This document shows, piece after piece, positions 7,727 to 27,058 of a stretch of DNA of 64,000 nucleotides (the first letter of the stretch is position 1; each line of letters starts with the position of its first letter). Under the pieces are notes generated by a model that was not told the origin of the DNA, searched no databases, and was given only the letters and a program-made list of their open reading frames with translations. Both the position numbers and the translations under genes were made by a program. Source of the stretch: Escherichia coli (GTDB lineage: Bacteria > Pseudomonadota > Gammaproteobacteria > Enterobacterales > Enterobacteriaceae); NCBI RefSeq assembly GCF_003018255.1, contig NZ_CP027440.1; one strand, written 5' to 3'.

Positions 7727-7833
7727 AACACTGGAGAATAAAATTTATCCGGTGAATGTAGTCGGATAACAAAAAGTAAAGAGGGGCCTAATCGACAGGG
7801 AAGGCCGCCCCGGATAGCGGGCGGCAGAAGGAA

Positions 7834-8607
7834 TCAGAATTTCCAGGTCAGATGGGCTGCAAGTTGCAGACCGTTATAATCATCGGTTGGGGTGTCGTAC
7901 CACACTTTACCTGCCGTCAGCCCGAGATTAAGTTGCTCAGTCAGCGGTTGAATACGTTGCAAACTGACGCTCTTCATGCTGCCGTAGCGTGTTTCTGGCG
8001 TCCAGTCATAGGTGTAAGCACCTGTTCCGCGGCTTAGCCATAGTTGCGTATAACCAGTGCCGCGCGGGTCATTCAGACGCACGGAAATCATATTGCTGTA
8101 ACTACCACCTGCATCGCTGGAGTCATAATGGGTATAGCGATAGCTGGTGATCACCGGGCCTGTATAGAGGGATACGCCGCCTTGCCAGGCATCGACTTCG
8201 ACATCATCGTAATATTTAGTGTAGCGATAACCGGTCGTGAAAAGCGTTTTTGGCAACAGGGCCAGGTTAATATCCTGACGAAAATCCTGGCGGGCAAAGA
8301 CCGGCGTATTATCCGCAAAGGCAATACCCGTTCGGGTTGTCAGCCAGTTATTCCATTTATACCAGACCGCACCCTGACCGCGAGTGGCATTGAAATGTTC
8401 AGTTTCATAATCACGACGCCCCTGGGAAAGATTAAAAAGCAGCGTTGCGTTTTCAACTTTCGCCACCAGTTCAGCATACGCTAAATTACGGTTGCCATGA
8501 TCGCCAGAATAATCGGTAAAATCGTAGCCCGCGGTAATGGAAGTTAACCCGGCATAAGCGGGCAATGTGCTAAATATTGCCGCCGCTAATAACGTCCGTT
8601 TTATCAT
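7834..8607 (-). CDS. yaiO: outer-membrane beta-barrel protein YaiO
   Basis: 257 aa; signal peptide MIKRTLLAAAIFSTLPAYA; alternating aromatic/hydrophilic strands; C-terminal ...HLTWKF. Confidence 0.85.
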   Translation of the reverse strand: MIKRTLLAAAIFSTLPAYAGLTSITAGYDFTDYSGDHGNRNLAYAELVAKVENATLLFNLSQGRRDYETEHFNATRGQGAVWYKWNNWLTTRTGIAFADNTPVFARQDFRQDINLALLPKTLFTTGYRYTKYYDDVEVDAWQGGVSLYTGPVITSYRYTHYDSSDAGGSYSNMISVRLNDPRGTGYTQLWLSRGTGAYTYDWTPETRYGSMKSVSLQRIQPLTEQLNLGLTAGKVWYDTPTDDYNGLQLAAHLTWKF

Positions 8608-8608
8608 T

Positions 8609-9319
8609 TTAATCTCCTGTACGGATAAGTTCTTGTCGGAGTGAATAAGTTCCGGTAGGTAAATTACGTTCTACAACCACGCGCGGGCCAAGTTGCGTGT
8701 TCGGGGAAATAATTCGCCCAGGCAAAATAATAACTTGTACGCCAAGGCGTGAACGCTGCCCGATATAACAACCTAATTTATCGCATCCGGTAGCGATAAT
8801 TCCCTCTGGAGTTCGAACAGACACGGGCTGTTCATCCAGACGATGATTACTGGTTCGTACTTGTGCGCCCAAATATGCCTGGTTTGCAACTACCGAGTCG
8901 GCAATAAAGCATTGCGGACCAATCGTTGCTTCCGCTTCAATAACCGCATTTTTAATTTCGGTGGCAAAACCAATTTTTACGCCATTGCTGATTATTGTGC
9001 CAGGACGAATAAACGCATAATTACCTATCAGGCAGTTTGCGCCAATCACTACCGGACCCTGAATAACGGCACCGTGGCAAATACGGGTATTCGCGCCGAT
9101 AACAACCTCACCGGCACTTTCATCAATAATCACCTGGTCTGCAATCTGAATATTTTTCTCTTTAACATTAAGCTTCAGATAGTTTTTCAGTTCCTGTGAC
9201 AGAAGGGTGGGAATAAGCGGTTGACGCTTCCACCAGTGCGGAATAGCGGGTGGGTTTGTCGCGCTGAGGTTCGCGTCCAGTAAAAAAGGCAATAAGTCCA
9301 TAAATAATCCAGATGGCAT
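8609..9319 (-). CDS. yaiX: hexapeptide-repeat (left-handed beta-helix) acyltransferase-like protein; start codon uncertain
   Basis: Uninterrupted 236-codon frame; repeated [LIV]-G-x-x-x-x-I hexapeptide units (VVIGANTRICHGAVIQGPVVIGANCLIGNYAFI...); upstream end overlaps the yaiP 3' end in another frame; candidate ATGs at 9319 and 9301 lack an obvious SD. Confidence 0.7.
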   Translation of the reverse strand: MPSGLFMDLLPFLLDANLSATNPPAIPHWWKRQPLIPTLLSQELKNYLKLNVKEKNIQIADQVIIDESAGEVVIGANTRICHGAVIQGPVVIGANCLIGNYAFIRPGTIISNGVKIGFATEIKNAVIEAEATIGPQCFIADSVVANQAYLGAQVRTSNHRLDEQPVSVRTPEGIIATGCDKLGCYIGQRSRLGVQVIILPGRIISPNTQLGPRVVVERNLPTGTYSLRQELIRTGD

Positions 9320-10364
9320 AAGCTAATAATACATACACAACGGAAAGCGGTGCTAAAGGCACCAACAACCAGCAACGATGAAACCAGGCGCTAAATGCAC
9401 CAATAACACAAACTACGCCGACCCAGATAAGCGGGAACATTGCCAACACCACACCATGTGGCCCGGTGGTGATGAATTCATTAAACCAGGTAGTGAGATA
9501 AATCCCAACGCCATAAAGCACAACCAACAGCATAGGAAATATACTGAAGATACCGAAGCGGCTAAATAAAAGTCTTTTATGCAGGCGCATACAGACCGCG
9601 TAGCCCACAATCCAACGCCGCCAGCGACGCCATTCCTCACGCGGGCTGTTGCATTCCTGTGGGTATACGATGCAGCGATTCGCCTGCCGAATACGATAGC
9701 CGTTTGCCACCAATGTCCAGGTGAGATCAAGGTCTTCGACTTTAGTACGATCAGAGAAACCGAACTTACGCAATACATCAGTACGGAACATCCCGCAGGC
9801 ACCGCTGATAATAAACGGTGCGCCGCCCAGGAGCTGCTGTAGCGTGCGCTTCATAACAATCATCGGCAACTTTACGGTCGCGCGGATGTGCGGTAACAGA
9901 CCCGCGCCTTTCAACGCAGTAGAGGGAATGCCGCCTACGGCATCAGCACCGCGCTCTATTTCTGCCAGCATATAGCCCATTCCGTCTTGATCGGGCGGAA
10001 CATAGGTGTCGGCATCATTTAAAAAAACCTGATCGCAGGTGGCGTAATTGAGGCCATTCATTAGCGCACCACCTTTACCGGTATTTTTTTGCGTGACGGC
10101 AATAAAGCGGTCGCCCCATTTGCGTTTGACTTCCGCCATGACCGCTTCGGTATTGTCCGTGGAGCCGTCGTTAACGCAAATTACCCGGCAGAAATAAGGG
10201 TTACGCAGCAGATTATCCAGTGACTGCGCCAGACACGGGCCTTCGTTATAAGCAGGTATAATGGCGTCAATACAGCCTTTCTTTTGGCTGGGCTTACGCC
10301 TTAACGTACTCAGAAACCATAGCAATATTGCTACGGCCATACATATAAAGATCCAGGTTTTCAT
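9168..10364 (-). CDS. yaiP: family-2 glycosyltransferase with N- and C-terminal membrane segments
   Basis: 398 aa; DxD-like NDAD motif, REEWRRWRRW resembling the QxxRW motif of processive GT2 synthases; hydrophobic C-terminal third. Confidence 0.85.
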   Translation of the reverse strand: MKTWIFICMAVAILLWFLSTLRRKPSQKKGCIDAIIPAYNEGPCLAQSLDNLLRNPYFCRVICVNDGSTDNTEAVMAEVKRKWGDRFIAVTQKNTGKGGALMNGLNYATCDQVFLNDADTYVPPDQDGMGYMLAEIERGADAVGGIPSTALKGAGLLPHIRATVKLPMIVMKRTLQQLLGGAPFIISGACGMFRTDVLRKFGFSDRTKVEDLDLTWTLVANGYRIRQANRCIVYPQECNSPREEWRRWRRWIVGYAVCMRLHKRLLFSRFGIFSIFPMLLVVLYGVGIYLTTWFNEFITTGPHGVVLAMFPLIWVGVVCVIGAFSAWFHRCWLLVPLAPLSVVYVLLAYAIWIIYGLIAFFTGREPQRDKPTRYSALVEASTAYSHPSVTGTEKLSEA

Positions 10365-10373
10365 GCAATTTGC

Positions 10374-11060
10374 TCAAAGAATCATTTTATGAATAACAAA
10401 ACCTTCACCCAGATCGCTATTGACCTGTTGCCCGCGAAATTGAGCAACTGCACGCAGACGCTCCGGGCGCATATAATCTCGCTGGCTCTGACTTTTATGT
10501 TTTTTTAACGCAGTCAGTTTAAGAGAAAAATATTCTTCTTTCACGGATTCAAAAACCTGAGGCATAAATGAAAGCCAGGTACTTGGTGTTTCATAGCCGA
10601 GAATTTGCGGAATAGCGCGACAGGCAACCATTGAGGCTTGATAGACTGCAAGATGATCCTGATGGCGGTCAGCATCATGCATGGTATATACACGTATAAT
10701 TTCAATATCAGAGGGAATTTGATTTTTTATGATATTTTCCAGGGCAGAAATCATATCATTGAGCTGTAAATGAGCGCGGGTGTCAGCAAAATTAAGATGA
10801 ATAGTTTGGTGGCACCCTAATATCTTTAGAGCGTTGCGTGATTCTTCGTGGCGATCGATTATTCCATCTACGCCAGAATTACCGGTAGTCATCACCACGG
10901 TAGCAATATAAATTCCTTTTTGCGCAAGGCGAGCTAGCGATGCGCCACAGCCTAATTCTATATCGTCAGGATGCGCGCCAATGGCAAGGATACCCTTTCT
11001 TTTATTTGCCGAAGAAAGGATCGCTGAATCTAAAACCTTATCCACTTTATGACACTCCAT
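10374..11060 (-). CDS. yaiS: PIG-L/LmbE-family deacetylase
   Basis: 228 aa; GAHPDDIELGCG zinc-deacetylase signature near N-terminus. Confidence 0.85.
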   Translation of the reverse strand: MECHKVDKVLDSAILSSANKRKGILAIGAHPDDIELGCGASLARLAQKGIYIATVVMTTGNSGVDGIIDRHEESRNALKILGCHQTIHLNFADTRAHLQLNDMISALENIIKNQIPSDIEIIRVYTMHDADRHQDHLAVYQASMVACRAIPQILGYETPSTWLSFMPQVFESVKEEYFSLKLTALKKHKSQSQRDYMRPERLRAVAQFRGQQVNSDLGEGFVIHKMIL

Positions 11061-11651
11061 TTTATTTATTATACTACAAGCACAACGACGCCCGCAGAGA
11101 CGTAACCTCTGACGCAGACAGATGCTAATTTTTAAGTGTTAAAAATAGCTGATAGCTGAAAAACAAGGGGCTGCCAGGTACGGGGATAAGACTGTATAAT
11201 CTTTATGTAGTTCATATGTTAAGTGTTTGTGTGTTTGGTTTGTATGGTTATTTTGTTTTATATATTGTATTTAAATGTGATTTAGTTTGTCAATTAATTG
11301 CATATTAAAAATATGTTCTATGCACAAATATGGGTTATATACATTATGTGAATGTATTATGTGGTTGATTGAGAATGATACAGTTATATATGCAATGTGA
11401 ATATAATGGTTTCATTATATGTATTGCTGTTAATAAAATAAAAGACATTATAATCTGCTTGTTTATGCATTAATAAAATGAAGTGCAGTAACTTACTGAA
11501 TTGTCAGAGTGGGTGTAATTGCATATTTAATCTTTCCTTTGCCACTTTTTCGCTAAGAATAAAATCATCTGTGCGATAACAACTAATTCTTTTAATGAAT
11601 GTTTTTATTCCTGAATACTGCTCCCATAACAAGACAGGGGAGCAGACAATC

Positions 11652-12614
11652 ATGGCAATTTCATCGCGTAACACACTTCTTGCCGCACTGGCATTCATCG
11701 CTTTTCAGGCACAGGCGGTGAACGTCACTGTGGCGTATCAAACTTCAGCCGAACCGGCGAAAGTGGCTCAGGCCGACAACACCTTTGCTAAAGAGAGCGG
11801 GGCGAGCGTTGACTGGCGTAAGTTTGACAGCGGAGCCAGCATCGTGCGGGCGCTGGCTTCTGGCGACGTGCAAATCGGTAACCTCGGTTCCAGCCCATTA
11901 GCGGTGGCAGCCAGCCAACAGGTGCCGATTGAAGTCTTCTTACTGGCGTCAAAACTGGGTAACTCCGAAGCGCTGGTGGTGAAGAAAACTATCAGCAAAC
12001 CGGAAGATCTGATTGGCAAGCGCATCGCCGTACCGTTTATCTCCACCACCCACTACAGCCTGCTGGCGGCGCTGAAACACTGGGGTATTAAACCTGGGCA
12101 AGTGGAGATTGTGAACCTGCAGCCGCCCGCAATTATCGCCGCCTGGCAGCGGGGAGATATTGATGGTGCTTATGTCTGGGCACCGGCGGTTAACGCGCTG
12201 GAAAAAGACGGCAAGGTGCTGACCGATTCTGAACAGGTCGGGCAGTGGGGCGCGCCGACGCTGGACGTCTGGGTCGTGCGGAAAGATTTTGCCGAGAAAC
12301 ATCCTGAGGTCGTGAAAGCGTTCGCTAAAAGCGCCATCGATGCTCAGCAACCGTACATTGCTAACCCAGACGCGTGGCTGAAACAGCCGGAAAACATCAG
12401 CAAACTGGCGCGGTTAAGCGGCGTGCCTGAAGGTGACGTTCCGGGGCTGGTGAAGGGGAATACCTATCTGACGCCGCAGCAGCAAACGGCAGAACTGACC
12501 GGACCGGTGAACAAAGCGATCATCGACACCGCGCAGTTTTTGAAAGAGCAGGGCAAAGTCCCCGCCGTGGCGAATGATTACAGCCAGTACGTTACCTCGC
12601 GCTTCGTGCAATAA
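11652..12614 (+). CDS. tauA: taurine ABC transporter periplasmic binding protein
   Basis: ATG 11652 (MAISSRNTLLAALAFIAFQAQA signal peptide), 320 aa; track ORF from 11595 is an upstream extension. Confidence 0.93.
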   Translation: MAISSRNTLLAALAFIAFQAQAVNVTVAYQTSAEPAKVAQADNTFAKESGASVDWRKFDSGASIVRALASGDVQIGNLGSSPLAVAASQQVPIEVFLLASKLGNSEALVVKKTISKPEDLIGKRIAVPFISTTHYSLLAALKHWGIKPGQVEIVNLQPPAIIAAWQRGDIDGAYVWAPAVNALEKDGKVLTDSEQVGQWGAPTLDVWVVRKDFAEKHPEVVKAFAKSAIDAQQPYIANPDAWLKQPENISKLARLSGVPEGDVPGLVKGNTYLTPQQQTAELTGPVNKAIIDTAQFLKEQGKVPAVANDYSQYVTSRFVQ

Positions 12615-15105: not shown

Positions 15106-16080
15106 TTAACGCAGAATCTTCTTCTCAGCCAAATCCAGCGCAAAGTAGCTGAAAATCAGATCCGCACCCGCACGCTTAATCGAACCTAAGCTTTCGAGCA
15201 CGACTTTCTCTTCATCTATAGCACCCGCCAGCGCGGCGAACTTAATCATCGCGTACTCACCGCTCACCTGATACGCGCCAATCGGCAATTCAGTACGTTC
15301 ACGCAGCTCACGCACGATGTCGAGGTATGCTCCGGCAGGTTTAACCATCAGGCAGTCTGCGCCCTGGGCTTCATCCAGCAGTGACTCACGAATCGCCTCA
15401 CGACGGTTCATTGGGTTCATCTGATAGCTTTTGCGGTCGCCTTTTAATGCGCTTCCGGCAGCTTCACGGAACGGGCCATAAAAGGAGGAGGCGAACTTGG
15501 TCGAATACGACATAATCGCCGTATCTTTAAAGCCCGCAGCGTCCAGCGCCTGGCGAATCGCCTGTACCTGACCATCCATCGCAGCGGAAGGGGCGATGAA
15601 ATCTGCGCCTGCAGCAGCTGCAACCACGGCTTGCTTGCCTAAATTTTCCAGAGTCGCGTCGTTGTCGACGCCATGCTCGCACAGCACACCGCAGTGACCG
15701 TGAGAAGTGTATTCACAGAAACAAGTGTCTGACATGACGATCATTTCTGGCACAGTCTGCTTGCAGATGCGCGACATACGCGCCACCAGTCCATCTTCCC
15801 GCCAGGCGTCGCTGCCGGTTTCATCGGTATGGTGAGAGATGCCGAAAGTCATCACGGAACGAATACCGGCGTTGGCGATGCGTTCAATTTCGCGTGCCAG
15901 ATGTTTCTCTGGAATGCGCATCACGCCTGGCATGGCTTCAACGGCTTTGTAGTCGTCAATTTCTTCTTCAACAAAGATCGGCAACACCAGGTCGTTAAGG
16001 CTAAGTGTTGTCTCTTCAAACATAGCGCGCAGCGCAGGAGATTTGCGCAGGCGACGAGGGCGTTGGATTAAATCTGTCAT
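15106..16080 (-). CDS. hemB: porphobilinogen synthase (delta-aminolevulinate dehydratase)
   Basis: ATG at 16078-16080 ([13 protein letters not shown]...), 324 aa; track ORF extends 11 codons further. Confidence 0.95.
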
Positions 16081-16606
16081 GGTCTGCCTGATGTTTGTGG
16101 AATCGAGGAGCATAGTATACCTGAAGCAGGCTGGGTGTGTTTTACGAAAGTTGTCGCGATGTTGACAAAAAGAGAATGAAAAAGAGGTCAGGACATCTTT
16201 GTAATAGAAATAGCAATAATTTCATATTCACTGAAAATATTTTTTAATTTTTATTTATAGCCATAGATTATTGTTTTTGGGGATTTGGTGACGTTTTCAA
16301 AAAGTGAATAACTTAAAGTTCATTGCTTATTGATACATTATTTGTCTGTTTTGGTTGTTTTATATTTTCATGGTCTATGTTTTAAAATTAACGCTTTCGT
16401 TAACGTATTGAAATATTGTGTTTTTGTTATTTCTTTCTTTGTGTGTGTTCACGTGCTTTATATATGTCCGCAATCGGACTTAGGGGAAAGAATAATTGAA
16501 CCATTCCTCTATAACGCCGCATAATCGTAAACGCGAAACATAATATGTTTTCTATGCATTGATAATTGATGGATCAACTTATTACGTCCCTGAGGAGGGA
16601 TGACAA

Positions 16607-19576
<2,970 letters not shown>

Positions 19577-19637: not shown

Positions 19638-20264
<627 letters not shown>

Positions 20265-25141: not shown

Positions 25142-26236
25142 TTACATTGTGGTTTTCAATGCGTTATCCGCAGCGTGACGCTCCAGCGCCAGCTCAATCA
25201 AACGCGTGATCAGGTCGGTGTAACCCAGACCGCTGGCTTGCCACAGCTTCGGATACATACTGATGTTGGTGAAGCCAGGCAGTGTGTTGATCTCGTTGAT
25301 CACCACTTCGTTCTCTGGGGTTAAAAACACGTCTACACGCGCCATGCCTGCGCATCCCAACGTCTGATAAGCCTGAACGGCAATCGCCCGGATCTTATCG
25401 TTGATTTCTGGCGCAATGGCTGCCGGAACTACCACTTTCGCGCCATCTTCGTCAATGTACTTGGTGTCGTAGGCATAGAAATCGCTGGTGAGTACGATCT
25501 CGCCACAGGTGCTGGCTTGCGGATTGTCGTTGCCCAGAACTGCGCATTCGATCTCACGACCTTTTATCCCTTGCTCAACGATCACTTTATGATCGAACTC
25601 GAACGCCAGATCGACGGCAATTGCGTACTGTTCTTCGCTGGTTACTTTGCTGACACCAACAGAAGAGCCCTGATTAGCCGGTTTTACAAACAGTGGTAAC
25701 CCCAGTTTAGACTCTACTTCGGCAAAACTGATGTTGTTACGATTAGCGCGCGTCAGGGTAATAAATGGCGCAATGTTCAGCCCGGCATCGCGCAGCAGAC
25801 GTTTGGTGACATCTTTGTCCATACAGGCTGCTGAAGCCAGAACATCTGAACCTACAAACGGTAAATTGGCGACCCGCAGCATTCCCTGCAAGGAACCATC
25901 TTCGCCCAGCGTACCGTGGACAATCGGGAAAATGACATCCACCGTCGGCAACGGCTGACCGTTTTGCGCGTCGATAAGCTGATGCTCATGTTTACCTGGC
26001 ACTTGCGCAAGGCTGGTCGCCGAAGGGCGCAACGCAATATGGGCAGGATCGTCTGCATTTAGCAGATAATTGCTGGCATCGCTGACGTGCCATTGCCCTT
26101 GTTTATCAATGCCCAGCAGCACAACGTCGAAGCGACTTTTATCAATGGCATCGACAATATTTTTTGCCGATTGCAGAGACACTTCATGTTCCGCTGATTT
26201 ACCACCAAAAACGATTCCTACCCGCAGTTTTTCCAT
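25142..26236 (-). CDS. ddlA: D-alanine--D-alanine ligase A
   Basis: 364 aa; ATP-grasp fold; recognised as DdlA. Confidence 0.95.
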
Positions 26237-26698
26237 CTTAAAAACCTATCCCGTCTAACACAAAGTGCATACATTACCACGACAAAACGGGGGATTCGCG
26301 GCCTTCTGACAGAATGTTGCAATCTTCTGCTGACAAAGCGTGCAACGTACTGGTGAAGAAAGTGCGTTATCTCAATGATGTGCGCAAGATCACAAAAATG
26401 ATGAACGGGAAGCTAATTTATTCCTGGCTTGTATGGCCATGCAGTGAGTTTTTTTCTCTTAATTATAAGTTAACGAAGAGAATATATTTCATAACTTTTA
26501 TTTATAATAAAGGTTGATAATTAAAAGCCTATATTTTGTGTGGGTAATTATTAAAATAAGAGAAACGTTTCGCTGGTAATCAAACAAAAAATATTTGCGC
26601 AAAGTATTTCCCTTGTCATAAAAATAATACTTCCAGACACTATGAAGTTGTGAAACATAATGTTAACTTCTCCATACTTTGGATAAGGAAATACAGAC

Positions 26699-26959
26699 AT
26701 GAAAAATCTCATTGCTGAGTTGTTATTTAAGCTTGCCCAAAAAGAAGAAGAGTCGAAAGAACTGTGCGCGCAGGTAGAAGCTTTGGAGATTATCGTCACT
26801 GCAATGCTTCGCAATATGGCGCAAAATGACCAACAGAGGTTGATTGATCAGGTAGAGGGGGCGCTGTACGAGGTAAAGCCCGATGCCAGCATTCCTGACG
26901 ACGATACGGAGCTGCTGCGCAATTATGTAAAGAAGTTATTGAAGCATCCTCGTCAGTAA
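26699..26959 (+). CDS. iraP: anti-adaptor protein IraP (RpoS stabiliser)
   Basis: 86 aa ([30 protein letters not shown]...), coiled-coil-like. Confidence 0.9.
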
Positions 26960-26979
26960 AAAGTTAATCTTTTCAACAG

Positions 26980-26997
26980 CTGTCATAAAGCTGTCAC
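26980..26997 (+). promoter_or_regulatory. Pho box (PhoB binding site) of the phoA promoter
   Basis: ctgtcataaagctgtcac matches the direct-repeat CTGTCAT consensus; -10 tatagt at 27008-27013. Confidence 0.85.
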
Positions 26998-27058
26998 GGC
27001 CGAGACTTATAGTCGCTTTGTTTTTATTTTTAATGTATTTGTACATGGAGAAAATAAA

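Follow-up and report, generated by a model that had tools for sequence, protein, structure and literature searches.

The 591-bp spacer that separates the divergent genes yaiS and tauA is a control region of E. coli of an ordinary kind, described before, and not a new gene or RNA. Within the 64,000-nucleotide stretch of DNA that we analyzed, referred to here as the window, it probably acts as a divergent control region that is made up of two parts and borders on an accessory gene cassette; the distal part would be silenced by H-NS and the proximal part would be the promoter of tauABCD. We hold this view with good confidence. It is carried by the composition of the spacer, its promoter motifs, its conservation pattern, the polymorphism of the cassette, and the homology of the tauA promoter, all of which we observed in this allele and its relatives.

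Extent and composition of the spacer

The limits given for the region in an earlier sequence-only reading of this DNA are right, being set by the yaiS open reading frame (ORF; 10374-11060, minus strand) on one side and the tauA ATG at 11652 on the other. With the yaiS start annotated in K-12, a GTG at about 11045, the spacer would measure about 606 bp.

11061-11651, no strand: yaiS-tauA divergent intergenic spacer, 591 bp, non-coding, GC 0.308

No feature is annotated in the spacer of the RefSeq genome of strain 2014C-3338, which is 100% identical over 10900-11800, nor in that of MG1655 and the 4362 matching E. coli genomes. In the same identical genome and in B2-type strains, yaiS itself is listed as a PGAP pseudogene (10683-11060), yet in the window its ORF of 228 codons is uninterrupted. 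The 3' half of the gene (10250-10750) shows only 89% identity to K-12, and the small-protein ORF ykiC is present at 10389-10508 (plus strand).

The strong AT-richness that had been noted was confirmed. At 30.8% GC, against a GC of 0.514 in the whole 64-kb window, the spacer belongs to the lowest ~0.1% of same-size segments (only 0.11% of equal-length windows are as low), and its core, 11181-11500, falls to 25% GC. TpA steps have a frequency of 0.144 in spacer DNA of GC 0.25 to 0.31, compared with 0.046 in the window, so that both signs by which xenogeneic DNA is recognized, a GC content far below that of the host genome and many TpA steps, are found. Elsewhere in the window, the hemB-ehaB spacer (within ~15961-16840; minimum GC, 0.33) and a region at ~26.4 kb (within 26121-27040; GC 0.29 over 320 bp) are similar in composition to the yaiS-tauA spacer; further low-GC or promoter-dense segments of the window lie at 19701, 33781, and 36651.

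The description of the spacer as repeat-laden did not survive. Repeated 6- to 10-mers in the core are as frequent as in dinucleotide shuffles (p ~0.4), and among the motifs counted, TGTGAATGTA and TTGTATGGTT occur once each, TGTGAAT and GTGTTT twice, and ATATGT three times. The whole spacer has a weak excess of repeated k-mers over shuffles (p 0.02 to 0.04), which we attribute to its mixed composition. TRF reported only a 2-copy 7-mer, and the best repeats consist of two copies of 15 to 23 nt that are 78 to 93% identical; a real repeat structure is ruled out by the repeat search, TRF, and the k-mer test against shuffles. As for the proposed check of skew and curvature, the core carries a strong G-over-C skew on the plus strand (G 59, C 21), and A-tract phasing is lacking. 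Helical phasing of AA/TT dinucleotides (9.5 to 11.5 bp) in the spacer did not rise above shuffles, and there is therefore no sign of strong intrinsic curvature. The high-affinity H-NS motif TCGATAAATT has one match with 2 mismatches in the spacer and is not enriched, which is uninformative.

Conservation within the spacer

The E. coli alleles of the spacer fall into at least three tiers of identity to the window (at least 99%, ~95%, and ~84%), and K-12 belongs to the last, with only 84% identity. An alignment of six alleles, including that of E. whittamii, divides the spacer into segments of unequal column conservation:

11061-11206: yaiS-proximal leader, 68% invariant columns
11207-11303, minus strand: conserved block of 97 bp, comprising the yaiS promoter and ~50 nt (C/A-rich) from the beginning of the predicted leader, 91% invariant columns
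11304-11513: distal AT-rich part, 65% invariant columns
11514-11613, plus strand: tauA promoter, that is, the upstream region of the tauABCD promoter in its 'yaiS-linked' lineage, identified by its match to a 64-species consensus, 80% invariant columns
11614-11661: -10 element, 5' untranslated region (UTR), and start of tauA, 94% invariant columns

The block at 11207-11303 thus stands out from the flanking spacer segments (91% against 65 to 68%), and it is nearly intact in E. fergusonii, whose remaining spacer is ~70% identical. In several unrelated E. coli genomes (L004, L005, L089, L090, and H8), IS1 has inserted into the AT-rich spacer or beside it, in some cases with adjacent deletions that reach yaiP or tauD, and the spacer is disrupted in ~280 of the 4362 genomes. 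Such repeated insertion implies that much of the spacer is dispensable.

The yaiS promoter and its predicted leader

The conserved block holds the one strong promoter of the distal part, and a second site faces the other way:

11264-11293, minus strand: yaiS sigma-70 promoter, near-consensus (11 of 12 consensus positions)
11180-11257, minus strand: predicted start of the yaiS leader, rut-like (first 78 nt; C 26%, G 5%)
11369-11396, plus strand: secondary promoter-like site facing tauA (TTGAGA, 16-bp spacer, TGCAAT; TACAAT in K-12)

The yaiS promoter is composed of a -35 element TTGACA (11293-11288), an 18-bp spacer, and a -10 element TACAAT (11269-11264), and its hexamers are conserved in the six alleles and in E. 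fergusonii. From its position, yaiS transcription is predicted to start near 11257, which would give a leader of ~200 nt. Promoter predictions for K-12 list TTGACA-18-TACAAT toward yaiS and TTGAGA-16-TACAAT toward tauA (Shimada 2014, PMC3946193); at the latter site, the -10 element is weaker in the window allele than in K-12.

The beginning of the predicted leader is of unusual composition, with a C-minus-G skew in the top 1.4% of 78-nt windows. Its folding energy, -1.9 to -8 kcal/mol per 120 nt (z ~0), marks the leader as essentially unstructured. C-rich, G-poor, and unstructured RNA over ~80 nt of nascent transcript is what defines a rut site, and the predicted leader has these properties, on which basis we hypothesize that its start may resemble a Rho loading (rut) site.

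The promoter island and H-NS

Promoter islands of E. coli were reportedly described by Shavkunov in 2009. As used by the Ozoline laboratory, the term denotes a stretch of at least 300 bp with an exceptional density of start points predicted by PlatProm; further criteria are bound RNA polymerase with little full-length transcript, occupancy by H-NS, and horizontally acquired genes. The K-12 spacer between yaiS (minus strand) and tauA (plus strand) is listed as promoter island 383994_309 (Panyukov & Ozoline 2013, PMC3661553, Table 1), which starts 154 bp from the yaiS start and stops 154 bp before the tauA ATG (PMC3661553). Mapped by the same 154-bp offset from the flanking gene starts, its equivalent in the window is as follows:

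11199-11497, no strand: equivalent of K-12 island 383994_309

The sequence-only reading had proposed H-NS nucleation in the spacer and a lookup of H-NS chromatin immunoprecipitation (ChIP) data. The lookup was favorable, as the island is marked 'A', meaning that it was H-NS-bound in all of the ChIP studies compiled, and three predictors link it to foreign genes (PMC3661553). According to genomic SELEX, the K-12 spacer also contains H-NS sites and has a peak for the RpoD holoenzyme (Shimada 2014, PMC3946193), and a SELEX peak for the RpoS holoenzyme has been reported as well (PMC5493296). Low transcript output has been reported for promoter islands as a class. Nucleation by H-NS is thereby supported by way of the K-12 allele and its literature (PMC3661553, PMC3946193). 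Three of the 78 published promoter islands adjoin genes of the sulfur-starvation regulon, namely tauA, ssuE, and cysB (the K-12 islands ssuE/elfA, cysB/ymiA, and yaiS/tauA), which may be a coincidence (PMC3661553).

In a proxy scan, which is not PlatProm, the 320-bp core of the spacer contained 8 promoter-like sites against a mean of 1.69, placing it in the top 1.6% of windows; the density of such sites is that expected from base composition (3 found, 3.4 in dinucleotide shuffles). For the window allele, binding of RNA polymerase and H-NS, low output, and Cbl/CysB dependence rest on publications about K-12, and we infer that all of them extend to this 84%-identical relative. We regard the surroundings of the yaiS promoter as a likely platform for H-NS silencing on account of their base composition, the binding reported for K-12, and the accessory status of the adjoining genes.

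The tauA promoter

That the spacer might be the Cbl/CysB-dependent tauA promoter had also been suggested. This is supported for the proximal ~140 bp only, where in-register homology extends over 64 species. The best-conserved part of the promoter is next to the gene:

11614-11651, plus strand: tauA -10 element AATACT (11614-11619), 5' UTR, and Shine-Dalgarno sequence, at least 95% conserved family-wide

Transcription is predicted to start near A11626, leaving a 5' UTR of ~26 nt. Upstream lie two conserved blocks, TTGCC..TTTTT..CTAA.AA (11538-11561) and TAATTC.TTTA (11584-11594), the second of which overlaps a weak -35 element, TTAATG (11592-11597). Over the proximal 95 nt, 52 positions match the 64-species consensus in an ungapped register, compared with 28 +/- 4 in shuffles and 19 to 33 in other registers, and homology to the family tauA promoter can be detected upstream to about 11514-11535. 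In BLAST comparisons, the sequence becomes nearly identical to that of O157:H7 and other Escherichia precisely from 11614 on, where the putative -10 element starts. The hard junction at 11614 that this first picture suggested was abandoned, as the in-register comparison shows weaker homology further upstream.

The region accordingly has what a tauA promoter should have: a -10 element, a -35 element, an upstream dyad of the LysR type, and conservation among tauA-bearing species. A similar T-rich/A-rich dyad upstream of K-12 ssuE is suggestive only. The K-12 tauABCD promoter is said to depend on Cbl and CysB, with footprints for both proteins, according to van der Ploeg et al. in 1997. We take the block at 11538-11561 to be the putative Cbl site and the downstream block to be the -35/CysB region. 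This assignment of the conserved blocks to Cbl and CysB, which draws on that literature and on the ssuE dyad, is putative.

The 'yaiS-linked' promoter type is common to E. coli, E. whittamii, and E. fergusonii and forms one of two deep tauA promoter lineages, with near-identity between the types starting exactly at the -10 element. Cassette-adjacent tauA promoters (those of E. whittamii, E. fergusonii, and ~80% of E. coli genomes) differ from the family type at ~45% of positions. The divergence comprises 16 to 19 GC-to-AT changes against 9 to 12 AT-to-GC changes, a difference too weak to claim an AT bias.

An inverted repeat, CTGCTCCC (11618-11625) and GGGGAGCAG (11637-11645), could render the Shine-Dalgarno sequence of tauA inaccessible. 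Since the -10 element and the predicted start overlap with the 5' arm of the repeat, the hairpin would be limited to transcripts with a more upstream start, such that it could prevent read-through RNA from the island from being translated. In the 3' arm the sequence is conserved throughout the family, no compensatory changes were seen in the repeat (11618-11645), and the folding z score for 11531-11650 is -2.4.

An accessory cassette at the frmR-tauA hotspot

Comparison with other genomes shows that the distal spacer belongs to a larger accessory segment:

7742-11513, no strand: accessory segment with yaiO, yaiX, yaiP, yaiS, and the distal spacer, delimited by its junctions against other genomes

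The left junction lies at 7741-7751 (against O157 and empty-site genomes). The right-hand limit falls inside the spacer, where homology to the tauA promoter sets in (from about 11514-11535). Of 5426 E. coli genomes, 4362 (~80%) carry the yaiOXPS cassette together with the spacer, and 1077 have the family-type tauA promoter instead of the yaiS-linked one. Among these 1077, 451 match our query at full length, including the regulator gene, and carry the regulator/kinase/uhpC/ABC cassette. In the other ~600 the match is confined to the promoter-proximal ~100 bp of the query; the one inspected (L096) has an empty frmR-tauA junction. The frmR-tauA locus of E. coli is thus a hotspot with three states: yaiOXPS (~80%), an alternative cassette (~8%), and empty (~11%, an apparent value that extrapolates from the one genome inspected).

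The alternative cassette, as in O157:H7, consists of genes for a response regulator, a MASE1 kinase, a UhpC-like protein, and an ABC transporter. In a set of TauA-anchored regions from 80 enterobacterial species, it precedes tauA in 33 other species. The empty junction, of ~305 bp, is found in E. albertii, Escherichia sp. E1V33, and some E. coli. Of the 80 species, E. coli and E. whittamii alone have a spacer of the window type with yaiS next to tauA, and the remaining species have 41 to 68% GC at -600 to -150 from tauA.

A search for YaiS homologues located the four-gene cassette next to tauA in E. fergusonii as well. In Citrobacter sp. S-77 the yaiS cassette lies among IS110, reverse-transcriptase, and ParDE genes, and it is also present in an assembly labelled Yersinia enterocolitica. 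In E. fergusonii, Citrobacter S-77, and the 'Yersinia enterocolitica' assembly, ~300 bp of 17 to 31% GC lies directly upstream of yaiS, whether tauA is adjacent or not. The AT-rich DNA is therefore the cassette's own upstream region. By this distribution (4362 of 5426 E. coli genomes, alternative and empty states, other contexts), the island is linked to horizontally acquired genes, as the promoter island definition has it. The idea of an old acquisition boundary at this place has likewise proved sound, since the cassette and spacer are replaced or missing in the other E. coli genomes and are absent beside tauA in 78 of the 80 species.

No integrase, tRNA, direct repeats, target duplication, or mobile-element homology was found at the cassette junctions. 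A mobile-element origin was considered and dropped: there was no phage match, the "plasmid" matches were chromosome-sized records (1.2 to 4.9 Mb), and there were no convincing terminal repeats. As for the cassette products, they comprise a PIG-L deacetylase, a family-2 glycosyltransferase, a hexapeptide acyltransferase, and the YaiO outer-membrane barrel, and yaiS-yaiP-yaiX-yaiO looks like a small module for exopolysaccharide synthesis and export.

Proposed mode of action and alternative explanations

We propose that the distal part of the spacer (about 11061-11513) would serve as upstream control DNA of yaiS-yaiP-yaiX-yaiO, offering one strong and conserved sigma-70 promoter for these genes amid many weaker promoter-like hexamers. 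H-NS would polymerize along the AT-rich distal DNA and hold RNA polymerase in unproductive complexes, and the cassette would as a result stay largely silent, a case of xenogeneic silencing. A transcript that escapes would begin with the C-rich, G-poor, and unstructured leader and could recruit Rho, which might add a second layer of silencing. The proximal part (about 11514-11651) would be the sulfate-starvation promoter of tauABCD, with a T/A dyad block ~75 bp upstream of the predicted start as a putative Cbl site, a weak -35 element, and the -10 element AATACT.

Most of the spacer might instead be inert insertion-junction DNA, AT-rich through relaxed selection and mutational bias, in which only the gene-proximal promoters matter. 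Such an origin would fit the fast evolution of the segments outside the conserved block (65 to 68% invariant columns; 78 to 79% identity between the window and K-12), the IS1 insertions and deletions in several genomes, the absence of the whole spacer from about 20% of E. coli genomes, and the level of repeats and promoter-like sites, which is the one predicted by composition. H-NS binding, however, requires no specific sequence, and fast sequence evolution is therefore compatible with function. Moreover, the occurrence of comparably AT-rich DNA over ~300 bp upstream of yaiS in unrelated contexts suggests that the composition is maintained, and binding of both H-NS and RNA polymerase is reported for the K-12 allele (PMC3661553, PMC3946193). 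We rate inert junction DNA as rather unlikely and prefer a silenced control region.

A transcript or a peptide of its own is less probable still. An unannotated small RNA, which the sequence-only reading had allowed for, or a cis-acting structured RNA could be imagined behind the strong conserved yaiS promoter with its long non-coding leader, the first ~50 transcribed nt of which are conserved, and long spacers of this kind might hide small RNAs (Shimada 2014, PMC3946193). Yet what would identify a small RNA gene, a family match or an unusual or conserved structure with a terminator, was not found: a permissive Rfam scan of the spacer gave chance-level matches only (best score, 15 bits against a gathering score of 50), sliding-window folding of both strands across the spacer stayed within z +/-1.5, the spacer has one weak terminator-like site only (3 G-U pairs, poor T run), and MG1655 lists no feature there. 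An RNA gene thus appears improbable. Even less credit is due to a small protein, for which two ORFs exist, and the judgment that the spacer holds no credible ORF is upheld, as both candidates fail conservation as proteins. The hydrophobic 30-codon ORF at 11216-11308 (plus strand) is intact in six Escherichia alleles but shows ~7 non-synonymous changes against 1 synonymous change, a variable stop position, and no Shine-Dalgarno sequence, and in E. fergusonii it has a stop at codon 11 though the DNA block is conserved. With mainly non-synonymous changes and a broken frame in E. fergusonii, this ORF does not account for the conservation of the block at 11207-11303, which is not coding. The 64-codon antisense ORF at 11504-11698 (minus strand), which overlaps the tauA promoter, had rightly been called spurious: it has in-frame stops in A1_136 and E. 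whittamii and lacks a start codon in E. fergusonii.

Relation to known systems and implications

The spacer shares its locus, genes, and composition with island 383994_309, as well as an AT-rich core of ~300 bp dense in promoter-like sites and foreign-looking accessory genes. It differs from that island in sequence, the window allele being 84% identical to that of K-12. H-NS is said to silence AT-rich acquired DNA as xenogeneic, as put forward by Navarre, Lucchini, and Oshima in 2006. In line with this, the spacer has a GC content over 20 points lower than the genome average and heads a strain-variable cassette, and by analogy with K-12 its strong promoter would nevertheless be poorly expressed. 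In contrast to typical H-NS-silenced islands, the cassette genes have a nearly normal GC content (41 to 58% in 200-bp windows), and strong AT-richness is limited to the ~450 bp upstream. The proximal ~140 bp, directly upstream of tauA, is 94 to 100% identical to the Cbl/CysB promoter of K-12 tauABCD; as an account of the whole spacer that promoter falls short, since it makes up only a quarter of it. Chromosomal replacement islands in E. coli, O-islands against K-islands, were reportedly described by Perna in 2001. Like other integration hotspots of E. coli, the frmR-tauA locus holds alternative cassettes or nothing, with sharp breaks in homology, but unlike them it has no integrase, tRNA, direct repeats, or mobile-element homology that we could find at the junctions.

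Given a documented island bound by H-NS and RNA polymerase beside a well-studied promoter, what we describe is therefore known biology rediscovered. What is new is evolutionary detail only, namely, the hotspot with its three states, the assignment of the AT-rich DNA to the cassette, and the existence of two lineages of the tauA promoter. These comparative results are of modest value, and the region is of little importance in itself. A more speculative notion, possible in our opinion but doubtful, is that the yaiS cassette brought or caused the second tauA promoter lineage; should H-NS spread from the adjacent AT-rich island as far as this promoter, the Cbl/CysB regulation known from K-12 would be a derived condition shaped by silencing. 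If so, strains with the family-type promoter would regulate taurine use differently. The promoter type of K-12 and the window differs at about half of its positions from the type in other Enterobacteriaceae and ~20% of E. coli genomes; hence, the K-12 tauA promoter, which has served as the model for regulation by Cbl, is not typical of the family. The strains in their different states offer a natural test of the effect that a silenced island has on a neighboring activator-dependent promoter.
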